NCBI GenBank assembly: GCA_965197585.1
Contig: OZ240215.1
Location: forward strand, 2,560,001 to 2,624,000
Source: Dehalococcoidia bacterium
GTDB lineage: Bacteria; Chloroflexota; Dehalococcoidia; Plut-88900
Length of the DNA stretch: 64,000 nt
Reading direction: 5' to 3'
This document shows positions 1-8,248 of this stretch, piece after piece. The notes under the pieces are model-generated. The model worked only from the letters and a program-made list of their open reading frames with translations, was not told where the DNA came from and ran no database searches. Position 1 is the stretch's first letter. Each line of letters opens with the position of its first letter. The position numbers and the translations under genes are program-made.

Positions 1-314
1 GTCCCTCCCGTCGGGCCCATCACCCCTGTCGCCGAGACCGCCAGGTCCGACCCGATTAGCCGCCGAGCCCCTTTGGCCATCTCCCGCGCAGTCACCTCCG
101 ACACCGACCCCTCACGAATCATCACTTCTTTGGGAATGCCCAGTACGTTCTCTTTGATATCGTTGGCATACGCCAAAACGCCCCCAACAAAGAACCTCGA
201 ACTCCCCGGCACGCTGGTCAGCCTGGCCGCTATCAACCCCGAGGTACATGCCTCCGCCACGGACACCGTAAGTCCCCGCTCCTTCAGAATTCCCGCAACT
301 TCCTCTTCGATCAA
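1..314 (-). CDS. pncC: CinA C-terminal domain / nicotinamide mononucleotide deamidase PncC family protein (3' end outside window)
   Basis: Not in the ORF track. Manual translation from TTG at 314 (RBS GGGGGAG) gives ..LTVSVAEACTSGLIAARLTSVPGSSRFFVGGVLAYANDIKENVLG..GSVSEVTAREMAKGA..LAVSATGVMGP, matching the CinA/PncC motifs AESCTGG, PGSS, Y.N..K and S.TG.AGP. Confidence 0.85.
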   Translation of the reverse strand, partial: MIEEEVAGILKERGLTVSVAEACTSGLIAARLTSVPGSSRFFVGGVLAYANDIKENVLGIPKEVMIREGSVSEVTAREMAKGARRLIGSDLAVSATGVMGPTGG

Positions 315-418
315 ATCTCCCCCTTCAATGCCTGTTTCCTATTACCCCCAATTATAGCCCCCAAACCTCCCCCTTCCCCTTTCCGGCACCCCGTCCCGGA
401 GCCGTAATCGACCCCCAC

Positions 419-1030
419 CTAAGACCCCACCCCCACGCTGATATCTGTAGGCGTACCGCTATTCGTCGCATTCTGGTCCTGCGGACACGCCGACACACAC
501 ACCCAGCAGTCCATCTCTACCCTGAGCAGCACGTAGTCCCCCGCCTTAGTCTCCGGCGCCGCGATGTCCATCCTGCCGTCTATAAACACGCGGAAGTTGG
601 TGAACAGGTTAACGGGCTGCGGTATCTCCACTCCTGGCACCCCGATGGCCTCCATACTCTTCTGAAGGTTCTCCTCACAGCTGGCATGCCACCCCTCCAC
701 CCCCAACTCCCGGTACCTGCTGGGATTGCACGACGCGTATAGCAAGTCGTGAATTCCGGGGCTATGGTCCTCGACAAGCGTGAGGATAGGTCGGCGCTCC
801 TGGGTATAGAACGCATCACCTTCCTTCGGAAACAGCCTGGAAATGGAAGGCCTCGTATGCTCGGCGCTCAGGTACTCCTTTACGTTCTCCACGTTGAAGG
901 CAAACAGGTCCACGGCCTGCCCGCCATGCAGATCTATCACCTTAACCAGCTCCCCCTTACTTACCCGAAACGCCTTCCCTTCCCGAGCCGGTACATGGTA
1001 GTCCAACCGCTTCTGCGTTAGCTCCGTCAT
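419..1030 (-). CDS. Urea carboxylase-associated family protein (DUF1989)
   Basis: Motifs G.QAVDL, HDLLYASC, HASCEENL, P.NLF.N and SACPQD. Start MTELT has a GGAGG RBS. Confidence 0.85.
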   Translation of the reverse strand: MTELTQKRLDYHVPAREGKAFRVSKGELVKVIDLHGGQAVDLFAFNVENVKEYLSAEHTRPSISRLFPKEGDAFYTQERRPILTLVEDHSPGIHDLLYASCNPSRYRELGVEGWHASCEENLQKSMEAIGVPGVEIPQPVNLFTNFRVFIDGRMDIAAPETKAGDYVLLRVEMDCWVCVSACPQDQNATNSGTPTDISVGVGS

Positions 1031-1046
1031 ATGCAAACCTCCGTTT

Positions 1047-1142
1047 TTGACACAATTGTCCAACGCGCTTTATATTTCCCTTACCACCCCAGCGGTAGCA
1101 CCTCTGGGCCGACGTCCCCCCATGTGGGGGGCGTTTCTTTTT
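1047..1142 (+). ncRNA. Putative small RNA cassette, copy 1 (TTGACA-18nt-TATATT promoter, two hairpins, U-tract terminator)
   Basis: TTGACA 1047-1052, TATATT 1071-1076, hairpin cccag..ctggg, then GC hairpin gacgtcccccc..ggggggcgtt plus tcttttt. A homologous copy lies 850 nt downstream. Confidence 0.6.
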
Positions 1143-1225
1143 ACCCTTCCAAGACCTCACACTGATACCGGACCCGAATGCTTGTTGCTCAGTGCGGCAG
1201 GCGGTTACTGGTTTCTCCAAACTCT

Positions 1226-1849
1226 TTAGGCCCACTCCATCGGCCTCTCTAACACATATCCGTCGGCCTTGATGACCTTGCTAGGTAGCTGGTTGCCCCT
1301 TAGCACATTTCGGCCTATTGGCAAGTGTGCGGTTGCAGCCTTTCGGAGATTAGCCGAATGTCGGCCTGGCGGGAAAGCAACGACGACGCGTTTCTCGGGA
1401 TAGCGTGCCCGAACTTTACGCACCAGACCAGACATATCACCATCTGCGGATACGATAAGAGCCGTGTCAAACCTATTTGTTTGAGCATCGTCGAGCAGTT
1501 CGACAGCAATATTGACATCAGTCATTTTCTCTTCATAGGTTTGCCGATTCACTCCACAACTCGTGCAGTACTGGTCTTTGACCATGTAATACCCATAGTG
1601 GATTTGTAGGTCCGGAAGAGTCGCCAAGGCCTCCCAATAGGTAGTCTGTCGCTTCGGTTTACTCGGGTTGCCCGGCTCGGCAAAAACTCTTGCGGTGAAG
1701 TATCGTACTATCACTAGATGTTGTCCGGGCTTCATGAGGTTCTCGGACATTCGCCTGAGATCAAGCCAGTAATACCGCTTCCATCTCTTGGCTCTGAGAC
1801 CATAGTACAGGTTGAATCCATCTACATAGACAGCTACCCTTTCTGCCAA
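1226..1849 (-). CDS. NYN domain (LabA/DUF88, PIN-like) putative ribonuclease
   Basis: Motifs VYVDGFNLY, EKMTDVNIA and IVSADGDM carry the NYN acidic catalytic residues. TTG start at 1849 preferred; the ORF track extends to 1912. Confidence 0.9.
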   Translation of the reverse strand: MAERVAVYVDGFNLYYGLRAKRWKRYYWLDLRRMSENLMKPGQHLVIVRYFTARVFAEPGNPSKPKRQTTYWEALATLPDLQIHYGYYMVKDQYCTSCGVNRQTYEEKMTDVNIAVELLDDAQTNRFDTALIVSADGDMSGLVRKVRARYPEKRVVVAFPPGRHSANLRKAATAHLPIGRNVLRGNQLPSKVIKADGYVLERPMEWA

Positions 1850-1896
1850 AATTCTACCTTTAACATGATGTAAAGTTGCTTGTTCCACCCGTGCTC

Positions 1897-1992
1897 TTGA
1901 CACAATTATCACATGTGCAGTACATTTGCCTTACCACCCCAGCACTAGCACTGCTGGGCCGACGTCCCCAAATATGGGGACGTCTCTTTTTT
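1897..1992 (+). ncRNA. Putative small RNA cassette, copy 2, divergent from the NYN gene
   Basis: TTGACA 1897-1902, TACATT 1921-1926, hairpin cccagca..tgctggg, then perfect 10-bp hairpin gacgtcccca-aata-tggggacgtc plus tctttttt. Confidence 0.65.
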
Positions 1993-2146
1993 GCCCCCAA
2001 GCTCTCCCATCGGCATCTACTCTATCACTACGGTCTAGTCTATCCGAATCCCCGTTCTCACCCCTCACCCCCTCACCCATCCCGATAACCTCACCAACAC
2101 TTTTCAGACATCCTTTCCTACCTACCTAGCATCCCACTCTTAACTG

Positions 2147-2174
2147 TGTCATCCCGAGGCCCCGCGAGGGATCT
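2147..2174. repeat. REP-like dispersed palindromic repeat (family A)
   Basis: tgtcatcccgaggccccgcgagggatct, nearly identical to 25847-25874. Confidence 0.6.
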
Positions 2175-2718
2175 AGGACTTGCCCAACCACCCCCCGTAC
2201 GACCACTCCCTCGTGGTTAACCTCCCCACTCCCCACGCATCAAAGAAACACCAAATGTGACACCATCCCCTTGACTCCATCAGACCATACGTACTAACTT
2301 ACTCTCGATTCCCGTCTGCACAGCCGACTCCCCACCGCCGTCATCATTACCTCTTCTTTTCGAACGGTTTTCCCTCCGACCCAACAACCCCATACATCTA
2401 ATCCTGAAGGACCTTGCCCAATTCATAAGCTCCAGCCGCCATTTCGCCCCCCTCTCCCCTGGGAATTTCTCCATTTACGACAAATGAATCAAAGTCTCTC
2501 CGACAAGCAGACAATCAGAATTCGTGCCTGCTGCCCGCAAACAATCAAACACAAAGCTGATTCCTTTGATTGCCCCCGCAAGCTTTGATAGTAGTATGTC
2601 AACTTGCCCCTCACCCCCCATCCGCGTAAACTACCTCCGGATCGCTTATATAACATTACTTGATACGTGCAATAACAGATTGCATGAGTCCACGGCTCGG
2701 CCTGGACCCCTCAGGAGA

Positions 2719-2952
2719 ATGGACACAGGAGAAGACATCGCCATAGCCGACCATTGGGACGCCGGTCACATGGGCTGCGGTGAGGTAATCATCATGCTCA
2801 GGATGCGGTTTCAACCCCTCGCTCCTGGCCAGGTCTTCAAACTCACCACCCAGGACCTGGGCGCCCACGAAGACATCCCCGCCTGGTGCCGGCTCACGAG
2901 TCGGCGCCTCCTCAAAGCCGACCACCCCCACTACTGGATCGAGCAGAAATAG
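2719..2952 (+). CDS. TusA/SirA-like sulfur carrier protein
   Basis: 77 aa with WDAGHMGCGE..L.PG.V......D.GA.EDIPAWC, a TusA fold with CG in place of CP. Confidence 0.8.
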   Translation: MDTGEDIAIADHWDAGHMGCGEVIIMLRMRFQPLAPGQVFKLTTQDLGAHEDIPAWCRLTSRRLLKADHPHYWIEQK

Positions 2953-2970
2953 ACCCTGGAAGGAGTCAAC

Positions 2971-3333
2971 ATGTCCGGAAAGTTCTGCGTCAGCCTCACC
3001 CATGCCAAGGACAACACCGACAAAGCTACCGTGGCCTTCGTCATAGCCAACGCTGCCCTCGGTTCGGAGAAGGAGACCATGGTCTTCCTCAGCACCGAGG
3101 GAGTTCGTGTTGCCGAGAAGGGTTATGCCGACGACATCAACGAGGAAGGGTTCATGCCTCTCAAGGATCTGATGGACAGCTTCGCCGCATTCGGTGGTGA
3201 TATCTACGTCTGTGCACCGTGTTTCAAGAAGCGTGGCCTCGACGAGAACAACCTCGTTGACGGGGCCACGATAGTCGGTGGCGCAAAGCTCGTAGAGTTC
3301 CTCTCCGACAACAGCCCTGCCGTCTCCTACTGA
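2971..3333 (+). CDS. DsrE/DsrF-like family protein
   Basis: Motifs FLSTEGV and IYVCAPCFKKRG...L..G; strong GGAG RBS. Confidence 0.85.
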   Translation: MSGKFCVSLTHAKDNTDKATVAFVIANAALGSEKETMVFLSTEGVRVAEKGYADDINEEGFMPLKDLMDSFAAFGGDIYVCAPCFKKRGLDENNLVDGATIVGGAKLVEFLSDNSPAVSY

Positions 3334-3354
3334 CCTCCCGCACCCGAGCCACTA

Positions 3355-4875
3355 ATGGACCCCATCGAACGTCACGTATACCAGCCCGACGCCAGCTTCG
3401 ACGGCGGTGACCTCGATTGCGGCGGCGGCCTCCTTCTGCTCATCCGCCGTCACATCGACCCTATGGAGCGCGGCGGCCTCCTCGAAATCCTCTCCACCGA
3501 CTCCACAGTCGAAGTCGAGCTTCCCGCCTGGTGCCGCATGACCAGCAACGAGATGGTCTCCTGGACCAAGGGGAACGGGCAACGCAGCTTCCTGGTCTGC
3601 AAGGGTCCTTTGGAAGAGCACCCAGCCACGGTCACCCTCCCACCTCCCGCCTCCATAGGCGAACAGCTGCGCGTGAAGATCACAATCCCCGACTCCCTCC
3701 CCCCGCCCTCCCCCGCCCCCAGTATCGCACCGCTGTCCGTCATGGGCATCGGGAGCTGGCCCCGGCCCCGCTGGATGCTCCAGGCAGTCCACGACAGGCT
3801 CGAAGGCCGCCTCAATGACGACGACTTCCAGGCCACCGCTGACGACGCCGCCCGACTCTCCATCGACGCCCAACTTCGCGCCGGTGTCGACGTGGTCACC
3901 GACGGCGAGCAGCGCCGCGACAACTATGCCAGCTTCGTAGGCGGCCTCCTCGACAACTGCCAGCTCATCCCTCTCACCGACCTCACCGCCATGGTCGACG
4001 ACCCCGAGAAGTTCGAGAAGGACCTGCGCGCCCTTGACGTGCCCGCCGGCGAGGTGCGACACCCTGTCGTCTACGGCAAGCTCGGCAGAAGCAGTCCCCT
4101 CGCCGTCCACGAGCTTGAATTCGCCGCCAAATGCACCGACAGGCCCATCAAGGTCGCCCTCCCCGGCCCCTACCTACTCATCCGTACCATGTGGCTTGAC
4201 TGTCTTACCGACCTCCCCTACGAGACCCGTGAAGACCTAGCCCGAGACGTCGTACGAGTCCTCCGCGAAGAGCTCCACTTCCTCCTCGCCTCCGGCGCAG
4301 CCCTAGTCCAGTTCGACGAACCCGTCCTCACCGAGGTCGTATTCGGCGCCCCAAGCGGCAACCGCACTTTCATGTGCGGGGCCCTCAGCGAAAAGCTGGC
4401 CCCTGCCGCAGAGCTTGATTTCGCCGCAGGCCTCCTTAACGACGTCGTCACCGGCCTCCCACCCGACCGCCTCGGCCTCCATATCTGCCGCGGCAACTGG
4501 ACCCGAGACGAGTCCGCCGCACTCTCCGGCGACTACCGCCCCCTCCTCGACCTCCTCAACAGGGTCAAGGTTGGGACCCTACTCCTGGAGCTCTCAACCC
4601 CCCGTGCCGGTGAAGCTGCAGTCTTGCGTTCTCTCCCCGAGGACAAGCGCATAGCCATCGGTGTCGTCAATCAGAAGCTCGACGCCGTAGAACGTCCCGA
4701 GGACATCCGCCGGAGCATAGACCTCGGCATCGACCTCTTCGGAAGGGAGCGCCTTATCCTCACCCCCGACTGCGGCTTCGCCACATTCGCCGACAACCCC
4801 GTCGCCTCCGCCACCACCGCCGAGGCCAAGCTCCGGGCCATAGCCCAGGCCCGGGAACTGGTTCCGGCGTCATGA
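3355..4875 (+). CDS. Fusion of an N-terminal TusA-like domain and a cobalamin-independent methionine synthase II (MetE C-terminal-like) Zn domain
   Basis: N-terminal FDGGDLDCGGG..ELPAWC, Pro-rich linker, then IGSWPRP, DGEQRR, QFDEP, HICRGN, LELS and PDCGF (Zn ligands H, C, E, C). Confidence 0.85.
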   Translation: MDPIERHVYQPDASFDGGDLDCGGGLLLLIRRHIDPMERGGLLEILSTDSTVEVELPAWCRMTSNEMVSWTKGNGQRSFLVCKGPLEEHPATVTLPPPASIGEQLRVKITIPDSLPPPSPAPSIAPLSVMGIGSWPRPRWMLQAVHDRLEGRLNDDDFQATADDAARLSIDAQLRAGVDVVTDGEQRRDNYASFVGGLLDNCQLIPLTDLTAMVDDPEKFEKDLRALDVPAGEVRHPVVYGKLGRSSPLAVHELEFAAKCTDRPIKVALPGPYLLIRTMWLDCLTDLPYETREDLARDVVRVLREELHFLLASGAALVQFDEPVLTEVVFGAPSGNRTFMCGALSEKLAPAAELDFAAGLLNDVVTGLPPDRLGLHICRGNWTRDESAALSGDYRPLLDLLNRVKVGTLLLELSTPRAGEAAVLRSLPEDKRIAIGVVNQKLDAVERPEDIRRSIDLGIDLFGRERLILTPDCGFATFADNPVASATTAEAKLRAIAQARELVPAS

Positions 4876-5582
4876 CCGGCCCGGCTGGCCCTCCACCCAC
4901 CGACGACGAGGCCATCCAGGTCCAGGGCTATCAGCGGTTCCGTGCCCCGGAAGGCCACACCGGCCAGGGAATCCTGATAAACACCTCCCGCGGCAGCATA
5001 TTCAGCCTTTTTCACCCCACCGAGACCATGGACGCCGCCGTACTCTGGGTCTGGGGCGCCCGAGGAGGCGTCACCGGCCCCGCCGACAGCATCTACGTCC
5101 GCCTCGCCGAGCGCCTCGCCAGTCAAGGCATAGCCTCCCTCAGGCTCGACTACCGTTTACCCAATGACCTCTACGAATGCGTCCTGGACACCCTCGCCGG
5201 GACAACCCTGCTGCTGGGTGTTGGCTTTAAGCGATTGGCCCTGGTTGGCCATTCCTTCGGAGGGGCCGTGGTAATAGCCGCCGCACCTTACAATGACAAG
5301 ATAGTAGCCGTCGTAGGTTTATCCAGCCAAAGCGCAGGTGCGCAGCGTGTTTCGGAAGTCGCCCCCAGGCCTCTTCTCCTCGTCCACGGCGCAGACGACG
5401 CCATAATCCCAGTCCGTGCCTCCCAGTTCATCTACGACCTGGCCGATCAACCCAAGGAACTGCGCTACTTTCAGGGCGCGGGCCACGGCCTGAACGAGTG
5501 CCGTGAAGAGCTGGAGGAACTGCTCCACGGCTGGCTCCGGGAGAAGCTGGCCCCGCCAACCGTCGACTCCGCACCTGCCTGA
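4872..5582 (+). CDS. Alpha/beta hydrolase
   Basis: GHSFG nucleophile elbow, HGADD and GAGH complete a Ser-Asp-His triad. ATGA overlap with the upstream gene. Confidence 0.85.
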   Translation: MTGPAGPPPTDDEAIQVQGYQRFRAPEGHTGQGILINTSRGSIFSLFHPTETMDAAVLWVWGARGGVTGPADSIYVRLAERLASQGIASLRLDYRLPNDLYECVLDTLAGTTLLLGVGFKRLALVGHSFGGAVVIAAAPYNDKIVAVVGLSSQSAGAQRVSEVAPRPLLLVHGADDAIIPVRASQFIYDLADQPKELRYFQGAGHGLNECREELEELLHGWLREKLAPPTVDSAPA

Positions 5583-5681
5583 CTAACAACCTGGCATTAC
5601 AAGAAATGCGATGCATCTCTTGATCCAGTAAGTATCTCTTCGGGTATAGGCAACGGGATCCCCGCACCCTATGGGTGGTGT

Positions 5682-5711
5682 CCGTTCGCCCTGAGAGTAG
5701 TCGAAGGGTCT
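5682..5711. repeat. REP-like dispersed repeat (family B)
   Basis: ccgttcgccctgagagtagtcgaagggtct; a reverse-complement copy is at 19419-19449. Confidence 0.55.
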
Positions 5712-5740
5712 AAAGAACGGACGGGGCCGGATCCCCCTCC

Positions 5741-6988
5741 CTACCCCTCCTGATTGCACACGTCCAGTGCCGTTGCCGCCATCGCCTTGGCGCAGGTAAC
5801 CATGTCGCTGATGCGGACGTAGTGGTCTGGTTCGTCTTCCCGTGCATCCCAATCGCCCCCTGGCCCGTACAGCACGCACGGGATGCCCGCCTTCCACAAG
5901 TGGGTAGTGTCATTCCCCGAGTAAGAGTTGGGAGTCTTGCTCCCGACGTAAGCCAACTCGCCCCCCGTGACCGCCCTGAACCCCCGAGCCACCGCTTTCA
6001 CAATCTCCTCGTCCGTGGGCATGTTCATCGGCTCCATCACCGTGCGAAGCACCCGATAATCCGCTGGTGGCGGCATCTCGATCTCATAGTCGAACTCGGG
6101 GTCCGAGGCCTTGACCGCATCCAGGGCCCGACGCACCTCCTCTAGGACTCCCGACGATGTTTGACCCGGGACCATGCGCCCGTCCACCAGCGCCGTGCAG
6201 AAGTCAGGCACGAAGTTCGGGCCGTTTATCACATGGTTCCTCCCCTGTCCCCCGATCACCGCTCCAACGTGTAGCCGAGGTAAGGATGGCAGGGCCGCGA
6301 ACGGTGTATGCGACAGCTCCAGCCCGTTTATCGCCTCAATGGCCTTGGACATCTTCTGAATTGCGTTGATGCCGCTCTCTTTCTGGCTTATGTGCCGAGA
6401 CTCGCCCAGCACGTGCACCGCCATCTCCAGCCATCCTGCGTGCACAGTGAGAACGGTGTCCGCGTCGTTCGGTTCCGCCACTATCGCCATGTCGGGGCGG
6501 TAGCCGTGCTCCAGGGCATACTCCGTCCCCACCCCACCCTGCAGCTCCCCGACAACACACGCCACCTGCAGGTCTCCCTTGAGCGACGCCTTCGCCCGGC
6601 GAATCGCCTCGGCCGCCGCCACTATCGACGCAACACCGCCCTTCATGTTGTATATCCCCGCCCCGTACAGCCGGTCACCTTCCACCGAGGACTTCCACGG
6701 GTCACGCTTCCAACCCATTGAAAGCGGGTCCTGGTCTATGTGCCCGTTCAACATCAGGGTTTTCCCGCCCCCCGTGCCCCGCAGCGTCGCGATTACCTGG
6801 TACCGGCCCGGGTCCACCTCTTGAAGGTCGACCTCATATCCCCATCGCCGGAAGTTCGACGCCAGGAACAGCGCTATCTGAGATTCCTCGGTCTTGAAGC
6901 TCGGTATGTCGATTAGCTTCTTCGCAAGCCCGACAACCCAATCTTCCTTCACCCGATTCGTTACTCTGTCTAAAGTTGTTGCAGCCAT
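5741..6988 (-). CDS. M20/ArgE-DapE family metallo-amidohydrolase (paralogue 3)
   Basis: Motifs LNGHID, YGAG..NMKGG, GELQGG and AEP. Confidence 0.9.
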   Translation of the reverse strand: MAATTLDRVTNRVKEDWVVGLAKKLIDIPSFKTEESQIALFLASNFRRWGYEVDLQEVDPGRYQVIATLRGTGGGKTLMLNGHIDQDPLSMGWKRDPWKSSVEGDRLYGAGIYNMKGGVASIVAAAEAIRRAKASLKGDLQVACVVGELQGGVGTEYALEHGYRPDMAIVAEPNDADTVLTVHAGWLEMAVHVLGESRHISQKESGINAIQKMSKAIEAINGLELSHTPFAALPSLPRLHVGAVIGGQGRNHVINGPNFVPDFCTALVDGRMVPGQTSSGVLEEVRRALDAVKASDPEFDYEIEMPPPADYRVLRTVMEPMNMPTDEEIVKAVARGFRAVTGGELAYVGSKTPNSYSGNDTTHLWKAGIPCVLYGPGGDWDAREDEPDHYVRISDMVTCAKAMAATALDVCNQEG

Positions 6989-7003
6989 TCTCGATCTCCC
7001 CGG

Positions 7004-8248
7004 CTAGGCCGGCAGGTTACAGACTTCAAGCGCCGTTAGGGCGTGGGTCTTTGCGCACTCGACCATTTCGCTCACGTTGACAAACGTGTCGGCCTCTCCA
7101 CCGAGCGACCTGTCGCCCCCCGGCCCGTTCAGGACACACGGGATGCCCGCCTTCCACAAGTGGCACGTATCGTTGCCCGCATAAGAGCGAGGCAGTATCG
7201 CCCCGACGTTCTCGGGTGGCGCCCCCATGTGCCCTTCAATCGCCCGAGCCACCGCCCCGACTATGTACTCATCCTTCGGGATGTCCACCGGGTCCATGGT
7301 CACGGCTACCCCCTTATATCTCGCAGGCGGCGGTATGACCAGCTCCCATTTCAGTTCCGGGTCCTCGGCGCTCAGGCCGTCCATGACCTTCCTCACGTCC
7401 TCCTCCACGCTCTCGGCGGTCTGGCCGGGGACTATGCGCACGTCCCAGATGGAGGTGCAGAAGTCGCTCACGTAGTTGGGACCCTTCAGGTCATGGTCTC
7501 GGCCCCGACCCCCGATAATTGCCCCACAGTTTATCCTCGGCAGCCCCGGCAGTTCGGGGTGCGGCGTATGCCTCAGTTCGACTTTGTCCACCGCATCGAT
7601 CACCTTCATCATCTTCCCAATCGCGTCGACCGCCTCTTCCCTCACCGTGATGTGCTTGGAGTACCCCAGGACGTTGATCGCCATCCCGATAACTCCGGCA
7701 TGGATAGTCATGATAGTCTTCGACCCGAAGGGCTCGGCTACAATGGCCATGTCCGCCGTCACCCCGCTTTCGAGAGCGTGGACCGTCCCCACCCCTCCCT
7801 GCAGCTCTCCCACCACGCACGCCACTACTATGTCTCCCTTAAGCTCCACCTTAGACTTACGAATAGCCTCCGTCGCCGATATCATCGAAGCGACTCCACC
7901 CTTCATGTTGAAGGCTCCACCCCCGTACAGCCGGTCCCCTTCCCAGCTGGGCGTCCACGGGTTCCGTTTCCAGCCCATCGCCAGCGGGTCGATGTCTATG
8001 TGCCCGTTCAACATCAGGCTCTTCCCCCCACCCGACCCCTTAAGCGTAGCTATGGTCTGATACCGCCCCGGCTCCACTTCCTGTAGATCGACCTCATATC
8101 CCCTCCGCCGGAAGTACGTGGCGAGATACTTGGCTACCTTCTGCTCTTCCGTCTTGAAGCTCGGTATGCGGAGGATCCTGCTGCACAGGTCCACCACCTC
8201 CCGATCCTTGATCTTTCCCAGAACCCTATCCTTCACTGCTGCATCCAT
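7004..8248 (-). CDS. M20/ArgE-DapE family metallo-amidohydrolase (paralogue 2)
   Basis: Same motifs; closely similar to the neighbouring paralogues. Confidence 0.9.
   Translation of the reverse strand: MDAAVKDRVLGKIKDREVVDLCSRILRIPSFKTEEQKVAKYLATYFRRRGYEVDLQEVEPGRYQTIATLKGSGGGKSLMLNGHIDIDPLAMGWKRNPWTPSWEGDRLYGGGAFNMKGGVASMISATEAIRKSKVELKGDIVVACVVGELQGGVGTVHALESGVTADMAIVAEPFGSKTIMTIHAGVIGMAINVLGYSKHITVREEAVDAIGKMMKVIDAVDKVELRHTPHPELPGLPRINCGAIIGGRGRDHDLKGPNYVSDFCTSIWDVRIVPGQTAESVEEDVRKVMDGLSAEDPELKWELVIPPPARYKGVAVTMDPVDIPKDEYIVGAVARAIEGHMGAPPENVGAILPRSYAGNDTCHLWKAGIPCVLNGPGGDRSLGGEADTFVNVSEMVECAKTHALTALEVCNLPA

Follow-up and report, generated by a model that had tools for sequence, protein, structure and literature searches.

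What role do two copies of one short element play when they stand on either side of a predicted nuclease gene? Within a stretch of 64,000 nucleotides (nt) from a Dehalococcoidia bacterium (GenBank assembly GCA_965197585.1, contig OZ240215.1, positions 2,560,001 to 2,624,000 of the forward strand; hereafter the window, numbered from its first letter), a gene for an NYN-domain ribonuclease-like protein lies on the minus strand between two similar elements that read on the plus strand. The original prediction, made from the letters of the window, took the elements for copies of a self-contained small-RNA gene and the whole for a candidate RNA-antitoxin or RNA-regulated nuclease module. Our comparison of homologous loci indicates that this RNA gene is a conserved genetic partner of NYN genes of the HEC-09 type in many phyla. 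Below we set out the evidence for this partnership and then weigh what the RNA may do to the protein.

Two copies of a small-RNA gene flank the NYN gene

A repeat search returned one two-copy direct repeat in the window (1047–1146 and 1897–1996), with starts 850 nt apart and 76% ungapped identity. In a blastn comparison across the whole 3.43-Mb single-contig genome, the two copies matched each other at 80% identity over 95 nt (E = 8.3e-18), which bears out the claim of two homologous elements, 850 nt apart, around an NYN gene on the opposite strand. Neither blastn nor the covariance model R2 found a third copy in the 3.43-Mb genome; with two copies, the element is not a genome-wide repeat.

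A consensus scan of positions 300–3000 found only two promoter-like sites, and these are the promoters of the two copies. The promoter of copy 1 (1047–1076, plus strand) has the −35 box TTGACA at 1047–1052, an 18-nt spacer and the −10 box TATATT at 1071–1076, and scores 11/12; that of copy 2 (1897–1926, plus strand) has TTGACA at 1897–1902, an 18-nt spacer and TACATT at 1921–1926, and scores 10/12. The same scan placed terminator-like hairpins at 1111–1135 and 1961–1984, each followed by a T run, and RNAfold folded the plus strand of both copies into the same two hairpins (−29.4 kcal/mol for copy 1 and −30.9 kcal/mol for copy 2), with folding z-scores of −2.99 and −6.65, respectively. Scan and folding thus recovered the promoter, the two hairpins and the U-tract that had been described for each copy.

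The predicted RNAs are about 60 nt long. Copy 1 (1083–1142, plus strand), which is convergent with the 3′ end of the NYN gene, runs from a predicted start at A1083 through hairpin 1 (1088–1108) and hairpin 2 (1111–1135) to a U-tract (1136–1142). Copy 2 (1933–1992, plus strand) sits in the canonical place, upstream of the NYN gene and divergent from it, and runs from A1933 through hairpin 1 (1938–1958) and hairpin 2 (1961–1984) to a U-tract (1985–1992). Copies 1 and 2 scored 90.2 and 97.1 bits with the covariance model R1, which is based on an alignment of five copies from this genus only, and 71.5 and 74.3 bits with R2.

The differences between the two copies gather in the promoter spacer, as had been noted: they affect 7 of its 18 positions and none of the 6 positions of the −35 box. 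From the −10 box to hairpin 1, 1 of 11 positions differs, and within hairpin 1, 4 of 21, one of these differences being compensatory (A-U to G-C); the hairpin 1 loops read CUAGCAC and GUAGCAC. The five-copy alignment showed 96.5% pairing, with two compensatory pairs and three pairs that had turned into G-U on the plus strand. These three lie in stem 2 (G-C or U-A to G-U or U-G) and become A-C mismatches when read on the minus strand, in line with the earlier statement that the stem changes give G-U pairs on the plus strand only. Of the two earlier suggestions for copy 1, a relic or a second antitoxin, the first is not apparent in this genome (promoter 11/12; R2 score 71.5 versus 74.3 bits); in the same-genus genome G003, the −10 box of copy 1 is weakened. 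Sequence comparison and predicted folding together identify the two elements as paralogous copies of a ~60-nt small-RNA gene with its own sigma-70-type promoter.

The NYN gene encodes a predicted ribonuclease of the HEC-09 family

The NYN gene (1226–1849, minus strand) encodes 207 amino acids (aa) from a TTG start codon at 1849, and not from a GTG at 1912. In the G003 orthologue, a TAA codon closes the longer upstream reading and a 207-aa open reading frame (ORF) begins at the same TTG, as do, at the same point, 73 aligned homologues (alignment A6). Because translation starts at TTG 1849, the promoter of copy 2, on the opposite strand, lies outside the coding region, 48 nt from the NYN start codon; the predicted RNA start of copy 2 is 84 nt upstream of that codon, and transcription is directed away from the NYN gene. 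Start codons among 80 homologues were ATG in 61, TTG in 7 and GTG in 6, with none assigned in 6. We rejected weak translation as a signature of a toxin on the ground that 61 of the 80 begin with ATG.

The protein matched Pfam NYN (PF01936) at 63.4 bits (curated threshold 24.2; E = 4.2e-17) and the PADLOC family HEC-09 (PDLC04163) at 280.7 bits (E = 1.5e-84), over profile positions 2–202 of 203; no NCBIfam family matched it. In an AlphaFold2 model (mean pLDDT 94.5), the protein has a PIN-like NYN fold: the best solved Foldseek matches were the LabA-like structure 2qip (E = 6.1e-10) and the NYN domains of MARF1 (5yaa and 6fdl, E = 3e-5 to 6e-4), with target TM scores of 0.65–0.69 and sequence identities of 10–20%. 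D111, D136 and D138 are invariant among the 73 aligned proteins, and D10 is kept in at least 90% of them. A catalytic role for the conserved aspartates is suggested by analogy, through the comparison with MARF1 in the HEC-09 part of the preprint by Payne et al. (bioRxiv 10.1101/2024.01.29.577857). From its sequence, the NYN protein is a predicted ribonuclease of the HEC-09 type.

HEC-09 stands for Hma-embedded candidate 09, a single NYN gene that the same preprint presents as embedded in Hma (helicase-methylase-ATPase) systems. Clustering placed 15–16 of our 80 homologous loci between large co-oriented HmaA-like and HmaB-like ORFs, and PADLOC annotated these on two such loci as HmaA (E = 9.5e-239) and HmaB (E = 0). 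The NYN gene of the window is not embedded in an Hma locus; such embedding is how HEC-09 was found and not a property of the protein.

The RNA gene accompanies NYN genes in many phyla

How often the RNA gene stands beside an NYN gene was counted at 80 NYN-homologue loci (42–68% identical proteins) taken from genome contigs, with R1 matches accepted at E ≤ 1e-4. By record titles, these loci come from Chloroflexota, several Proteobacteria, Ignavibacteriota, Planctomycetota, Acidobacteriota and Bacteroidetes, as well as Nitrospirales, Hydrogenedentota, KSB1, Opitutaceae, Rubrobacter and others. The element was found at 76 of the 80 loci and within 262 nt of the NYN gene at 75. At 68 loci it is upstream and divergent, the model start lying 36–262 nt (median 66) from the NYN match; four loci (L102, L110, L113 and L115) have it upstream in the orientation of the NYN gene, and three (L084, L085 and L098) have it downstream only, in convergent orientation. 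At one further locus (L088), it lies 1386 nt away. The model matched nothing at four loci: in L129 and L146 the contig ends after less than 115 nt of upstream sequence, and L087 and L121 had no element even with the search filters off. By comparison, R1 found family-like matches in only 6 of 151 genomes of the class. Tandem pairs of the element occur upstream in five loci (L089, L095, L107, L109 and L118) and downstream in two (L085 and L098). Bracketing on both sides is rare, being seen in this lineage and, among the 80 loci, only in L131.

The pairing extends beyond these 80 loci. In the genome G033, a 48%-identical NYN gene has the element 54 nt upstream in divergent orientation, and in G149 two elements adjoin a truncated NYN homologue. 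Plasmid pTHEOS01 of Thermus oshimai JL-2, a cultured carrier, has an equivalent pair: the element (59.8 bits; NC_019387.1, ~205813–205877) lies 56 nt from the NYN gene THEOS_RS12940, on the other strand and divergent from it. The earlier expectation that similar elements would stand beside homologous NYN genes is thus well supported, by 75 of the 80 loci and by G033 and G149. In the G149 locus (L048, 1117–1568), the NYN fragment retains only residues ~126–207 and abuts one of the two tandem copies; as the abutting copy lacks a promoter and the NYN gene its first part, the loss looks like the result of a deletion.

Other NYN loci of the source genome (G000) carry a weaker, related element. In two of them, L165 (C1:491700–494400; 27.3 bits) and L164 (C1:2922000–2924600; 14.8 bits), a promoter–RNA–terminator leader stands directly before the start codon of an intact NYN gene, on the same strand. 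In a third, L166 (C1:608600–611100; 24.5 bits), the leader is followed only by a decayed remnant of an NYN N terminus, and the element is divergent from a separate 170-aa NYN-like gene. Over the paralogue loci of the same genus and class, a leader was found in 6 of 7, with weak scores of 10.6–30.8 bits, two of them above E = 0.1. In a search of the phylum with R2, three of five new matches (L161–L163) proved to be generic terminators without the motifs of the family and were dropped as false.

Apart from the NYN gene, we found no shared neighbour among ORFs of at least 70 aa at the 80 loci, smaller protein partners not having been looked for. In L071, an hmaB-like ORF downstream (2615–4618) overlaps the end of the NYN ORF (2001–2624), which leaves no room there for a protein partner. 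Our searches of open-access literature returned no description of an RNA partner for an NYN protein. The wider family, with its leaders before paralogous NYN genes, supports a partnership rather than an accident of position.

The RNA family covaries and has its own promoter

In an alignment of 95 copies (A5), 97.2% of pair cells were paired against 79.1% after shuffling, and none of 500 shuffles reached the observed value, although the alignment was fitted to the model and is hence somewhat biased towards it. Sixteen of the 17 base pairs had changes on both sides, and controls with slid partners gave 44–52% pairing. Summed from the pair table, about 137 of 1564 pair cells were G-U or U-G, and one pair at the base of hairpin 2 is G-U in 53 of 94 sequences; because such cells would be mismatches on the other strand, they confirm the assignment of the RNA to the plus strand.

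A sigma-70-like promoter scoring at least 9/12 was in the right place in 69 of the 95 copies (shuffles: mean 2.7, maximum 7), typically as TTGACA-17-TAnnnT with the −10 box ending 11–18 nt before hairpin 1. Five nt ahead of hairpin 1, 79 copies have an A and 15 a G. This conserved purine fits a transcription start, and the starts that had been predicted near 1083 and 1933 agree with it. From there, the RNA consists of a 5-nt 5′ tail (ACCNC), a 7-bp hairpin 1 with the loop consensus GAUAGCAUC, a CC linker, a GC-rich hairpin 2 and a U-tract. Conserved sequence is limited to the ACCNC tail, the hairpin 1 loop, the CC linker, the base of hairpin 2 (GACG...CGUY) and UCUUUUU; the promoter spacer and the loop of hairpin 2 vary freely, and the interiors of the stems are also variable. 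Mimicry of a tRNA anticodon loop by the loop of hairpin 1 was considered and dropped, as this loop varies (UAGCA, UCGCA, GAGCA and UAGUA).

Rfam 15 had no match at the elements (E ≤ 10, window positions 900–2300) and none in 11 related loci (E ≤ 1). The earlier impression that the module belongs to no named family therefore stands for the RNA and fails for the protein, which is HEC-09. Covariation, strand bias and the conserved transcription signals point to a folded small RNA under purifying selection, with its own promoter and terminator.

The NYN-plus-RNA unit occupies a variable spacer

In the window, the neighbours of the NYN unit are CinA, DUF1989, TusA and DsrE, and the order CinA–DUF1989–[spacer]–TusA–DsrE is conserved across the genus. 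The spacer has neither element nor NYN gene in G004, G007 and G008 (158–159 nt), G005 (296 nt) and G002 (742 nt). In G001 (314 nt), it holds the RNA gene alone, with no NYN gene at the site, in a copy that is 94% identical to copy 2. The arrangement RNA–NYN–RNA fills the spacer in the source genome (1688 nt) and in G003 (1638 nt), which has both RNA copies and an intact NYN orthologue (77% identity). The segment absent from the same spacer in G002 and G005 corresponds to about 1047–2065 of the window (edges placed by eye, ±15 nt), that is, copy 1, the NYN gene, copy 2 and some 70–90 nt beyond. As the unit is missing from this spacer in five genomes of the genus, we read it as an insertion into a variable spacer between DUF1989 and TusA; comparison of the loci also suggests that it moves horizontally. 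Copy 2 and its right flank resemble the single copy of G001; the state of G001 could have arisen either by deletion of the NYN gene through recombination between the copies or by recombination of the cassette with a resident single copy.

Among the contigs of four sequencing runs, one low-depth contig (4.76 versus 17.4; runs X1/X2, one sample, the one that best covers the window) joins position 1137 to 1988, skipping exactly 850 nt. We rejected excision as its cause because the contig differs at 9 of ~150 positions, and we read it as a related strain without the NYN gene. A second contig of the same low depth skips 2046–2255; it, too, probably belongs to a related strain present in the sample.

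Between copy 2 and TusA lies a long, C-rich, ORF-poor stretch (1997–2700) that is common to G003 and G002 and absent from G005, G001, G004, G007 and G008, a pattern that makes the DUF1989–TusA spacer a variable hot spot independent of the NYN gene. Within it, a ~40-nt repeat at 2147–2186 that contains gtcatcccgaggccccgcgagggatctagg has 42 matches in its own genome, mostly in one orientation, and a summed contig depth of 1776–7032 in metagenomic runs versus ~20–60 nearby; it folds no better than its shuffles.

More distant NYN homologues were also seen on mobile DNA. They occur on 113 plasmid records, mostly of Escherichia (36) and Klebsiella (32); among the best 25 of the 113, plasmids of E. 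coli, E. albertii and Serratia are 3.4–5.1 kb long and encode NYN proteins ~31–33% identical to that of the window. The 3461-bp E. coli plasmid NZ_CP091696.1 (L167) encodes a 32.7%-identical NYN protein, a VbhA-family antitoxin and a helix-turn-helix (HTH) protein; R2 matched nothing on it at E ≤ 5, and a consensus scan showed no clear counterpart of the element. Gene 6 of the Mycobacterium phage prophiGD43A-1 (L169, 2489–3183) encodes a 35%-identical NYN protein near the integrase end of the prophage, and just after this gene is a weak, convergent element-like match (18.4 bits, E = 0.002).

The RNA may restrain the nuclease

What might the RNA do to the NYN protein? It probably acts on it in trans, to judge from the comparative data: its orientation relative to the NYN gene is not fixed, being divergent, same-strand or convergent, which argues for action in trans, and the conserved sequences in the loop and at the stem base argue for recognition by a protein. 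RNA inhibitors of ribonucleases are known from type III toxin–antitoxin systems, which comprise ToxIN, CptIN, TenpIN and AbiQ/antiQ. By analogy, the RNA would be made abundantly as a free transcript from its strong promoter, would bind the NYN protein and hold the RNase inactive, as in a type III toxin–antitoxin or abortive-infection pair, and its loss or titration would release the nuclease. The promoter data fit an excess of RNA over nuclease, since the RNA promoter is strong (69 of 95 copies) and a promoter of at least 9/12 on the NYN strand was present in only 9 of 68 loci; moreover, the promoter–RNA–terminator leader before the start codon of the paralogues is the layout of a type III system. 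The flanking direct repeats would let the nuclease gene be deleted with one RNA copy left behind, and this would explain RNA copies without an NYN gene. That the RNA binds and restrains the NYN RNase, and is in function a type III-like antitoxin, has in our judgement a little less than an even chance of being right.

Several observations weigh against restraint by the RNA. In its passages on the HEC candidates, the preprint by Payne et al. (bioRxiv 10.1101/2024.01.29.577857) reports no protection by HEC-09 against the phages tested and flags toxicity only for HEC-03 and HEC-04. In-frame stops interrupt 5 of the 80 NYN homologues (L072, L075, L110, L124 and L133), each of which keeps a matching RNA element; these stops could fit the decay of a toxin, or they could stem from faulty assembly of metagenome-assembled genomes. 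G001, G059, G011, G121 and G220 have RNA copies that keep the conserved features intact and lack an NYN gene, whereas a purely antitoxin RNA should decay after the loss of its toxin; we found no convincing NYN remnant beside these copies, the best candidate reaching E = 0.85 in L049. Finally, the resemblance to type III systems is incomplete, in that the nuclease has an NYN fold and not a ToxN/AbiQ fold, and the RNA, which has its own promoter, is one ~60-nt unit in place of an array of tandem repeats. As a separate observation, the NYN-free copy of G011 (L050, 1501–2243) is convergent with two ORFs that, judged by their translations alone, resemble a PIN-domain toxin and a ribbon-helix-helix antitoxin.

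One alternative keeps the partnership and changes its purpose: the RNA could be a cofactor of the NYN protein, an activator or specificity element, a decoy substrate or a target of autoregulatory cleavage. The association, covariation and promoter data apply equally to such a role, and the conservation of GACG...CGUY and of the hairpin 1 loop indicates specific recognition without specifying its purpose. An independent function of the RNA would make the NYN-free copies less puzzling, and the same-strand leader before the start codon in distant paralogues would fit autoregulation in cis, which some RNase genes (rnc, rne and pnp) are thought to exert through their own leaders. However, 68 of the 80 loci have the RNA on the opposite strand, with transcription directed away from the NYN gene, so it is no cis leader there, and it shows no variable guide-like segment, its variable parts being the hairpin 2 loop and the stem interiors. 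We regard such a role as unlikely, if well worth keeping in mind. A different possibility, which we consider improbable, is control at the level of DNA or transcription without contact between RNA and protein, whereby the RNA promoter occludes a weak NYN promoter or the RNA is cis-antisense to read-through transcripts. The predicted RNA start is 44–264 nt (median 67.5) from the NYN start, so near that the two promoters overlap or the NYN gene is read from further upstream. NYN-strand promoters are indeed weak (9 of 68 reach 9/12): across the 68 loci, we found no conserved one, only weak matches, many of which are the reverse reading of the −10 box of the RNA, and within the spacer of the copy 2 promoter the minus strand has the extended −10-like sequence TGTGATAAT. 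In Hma-embedded loci, the NYN gene is co-oriented with the upstream helicase gene, so that read-through would cross the RNA gene in antisense. Yet competition between promoters needs neither hairpin 1 nor its loop, both of which are conserved with compensatory changes, and an RNA that shares the strand of the NYN gene (4 of 80 loci, plus the paralogues) or lies downstream of it is not antisense to the 5′ end. Antisense control of read-through is further weakened by the duplexes predicted between the RNA and the NYN start region, which showed no co-varying pairing (−28.8 kcal/mol for cognate and −27.9 kcal/mol for non-cognate combinations, Mann–Whitney p = 0.24).

The remaining alternative denies any tie to the nuclease and treats the repeats as structural by-products, either generic promoter and terminator units or sites at which a mobile cassette ends or recombines. 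It draws on the presence or absence of the unit at one site among close relatives, on the related-strain contig that lacks exactly one 850-nt repeat interval between 1137 and 1988, on the occurrence of the family on plasmids and in a prophage, and on copies that stand alone, in tandem or beside a truncated NYN gene. But no recombinase is among the conserved neighbours of the 80 loci (ORFs of at least 70 aa), two-sided bracketing is rare (this lineage and, among those loci, L131), and what is conserved is a transcription unit and a folded RNA on one strand. Nor does a generic terminator explain the conserved loop or the proximity to NYN at 75 of 80 loci, and the generic terminators that R2 did match (L161–L163) have none of the family motifs. 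We consider this explanation very improbable.

There is also a broader proposal, which we advance tentatively and rate as somewhat short of an even chance: HEC-09-type NYN proteins and their ~60-nt RNA would form a new, phylum-spanning class of toxin–antitoxin or abortive-infection system, in which the RNA would be both the inhibitor and the sensor of infection. Under this proposal, the NYN fold and an RNA that is a single unit, has its own promoter and takes any orientation would set the class apart from all known type III systems, and the partnership would have its older branches in the distant NYN paralogues whose leaders are on the same strand.

Implications and comparison with known systems

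PADLOC, an annotation tool in wide use, lists HEC-09 as a candidate defence gene, which now looks like a protein-plus-RNA pair. The published HEC-09 clone held ~150 bp of upstream sequence (bioRxiv 10.1101/2024.01.29.577857), which probably included the RNA gene; the main text of that preprint does not contain the terms non-coding, ncRNA or small RNA. If the protein–RNA pair is real, the experiment called for is a different one from the test of HEC-09 as a lone protein described there, which gave no phenotype. Independently of mechanism, the analysis adds a well-supported small-RNA family that counts 95 copies, covaries at 16 of its 17 pairs, conserves its promoter and terminator and has no counterpart in Rfam 15. 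To our knowledge, RNA antitoxins have been described for only a handful of toxin folds. An NYN-based RNA antitoxin, if confirmed, would widen that range and would offer a bacterial model for the restraint by RNA of NYN nucleases, whose animal relatives include MARF1.

Among known systems, type III toxin–antitoxin pairs are similar in having a predicted endoribonuclease tightly linked to a small structured RNA, in the present case with no conserved protein partner found (ORFs of at least 70 aa, 80 loci), and in their setting of defence islands and mobile DNA; the same-strand variants even have the order promoter, RNA, terminator, nuclease. Classical type III antitoxins are tandem repeats on the same strand as a toxin of the ToxN fold and are co-transcribed with it, whereas at 68 of 80 loci the RNA described here diverges from the nuclease gene. 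In the window, the NYN gene has a single RNA unit on either side, both on the opposite strand, and not the tandem-repeat layout. Every RNA copy ends in a hairpin and a U-tract, which lies between the RNA and the NYN gene only in the same-strand variants and not in the window. Given the different toxin fold, the lack of a tandem array and, in most loci, the lack of co-transcription, the unit does not belong to any known type III family.

SymR/SymE, a type I cis-antisense pair, likewise has a small RNA that diverges from beside the 5′ end of a nuclease-like gene. The RNA described here differs in that it begins 44–264 nt ahead of the start codon and is transcribed away from the gene, has no co-varying complementarity to the start region and has no fixed orientation. 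Type I antisense RNAs overlap or pair with the translation start region of the toxin mRNA; the RNA of the window is predicted to start beyond that region, and the duplex energies show no specific pairing with it. Overlap with a longer read-through mRNA is possible. As for the protein, the modelled structure shares its fold and conserved aspartates with LabA/MARF1-type NYN proteins (PF01936; 2qip, 5yaa and 6fdl), from which it differs in sequence (identity of only 10–20%) and by its RNA gene, our searches of open-access literature having found no RNA partner gene for them. The closest relative remains HEC-09 itself: the protein of the window belongs to the same family over its full length, with a MARF1-like NYN fold and some Hma-embedded homologues. 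The difference is that HEC-09, as presented in the preprint's account of it, is a single protein, whereas here the NYN gene comes with a conserved small-RNA gene.

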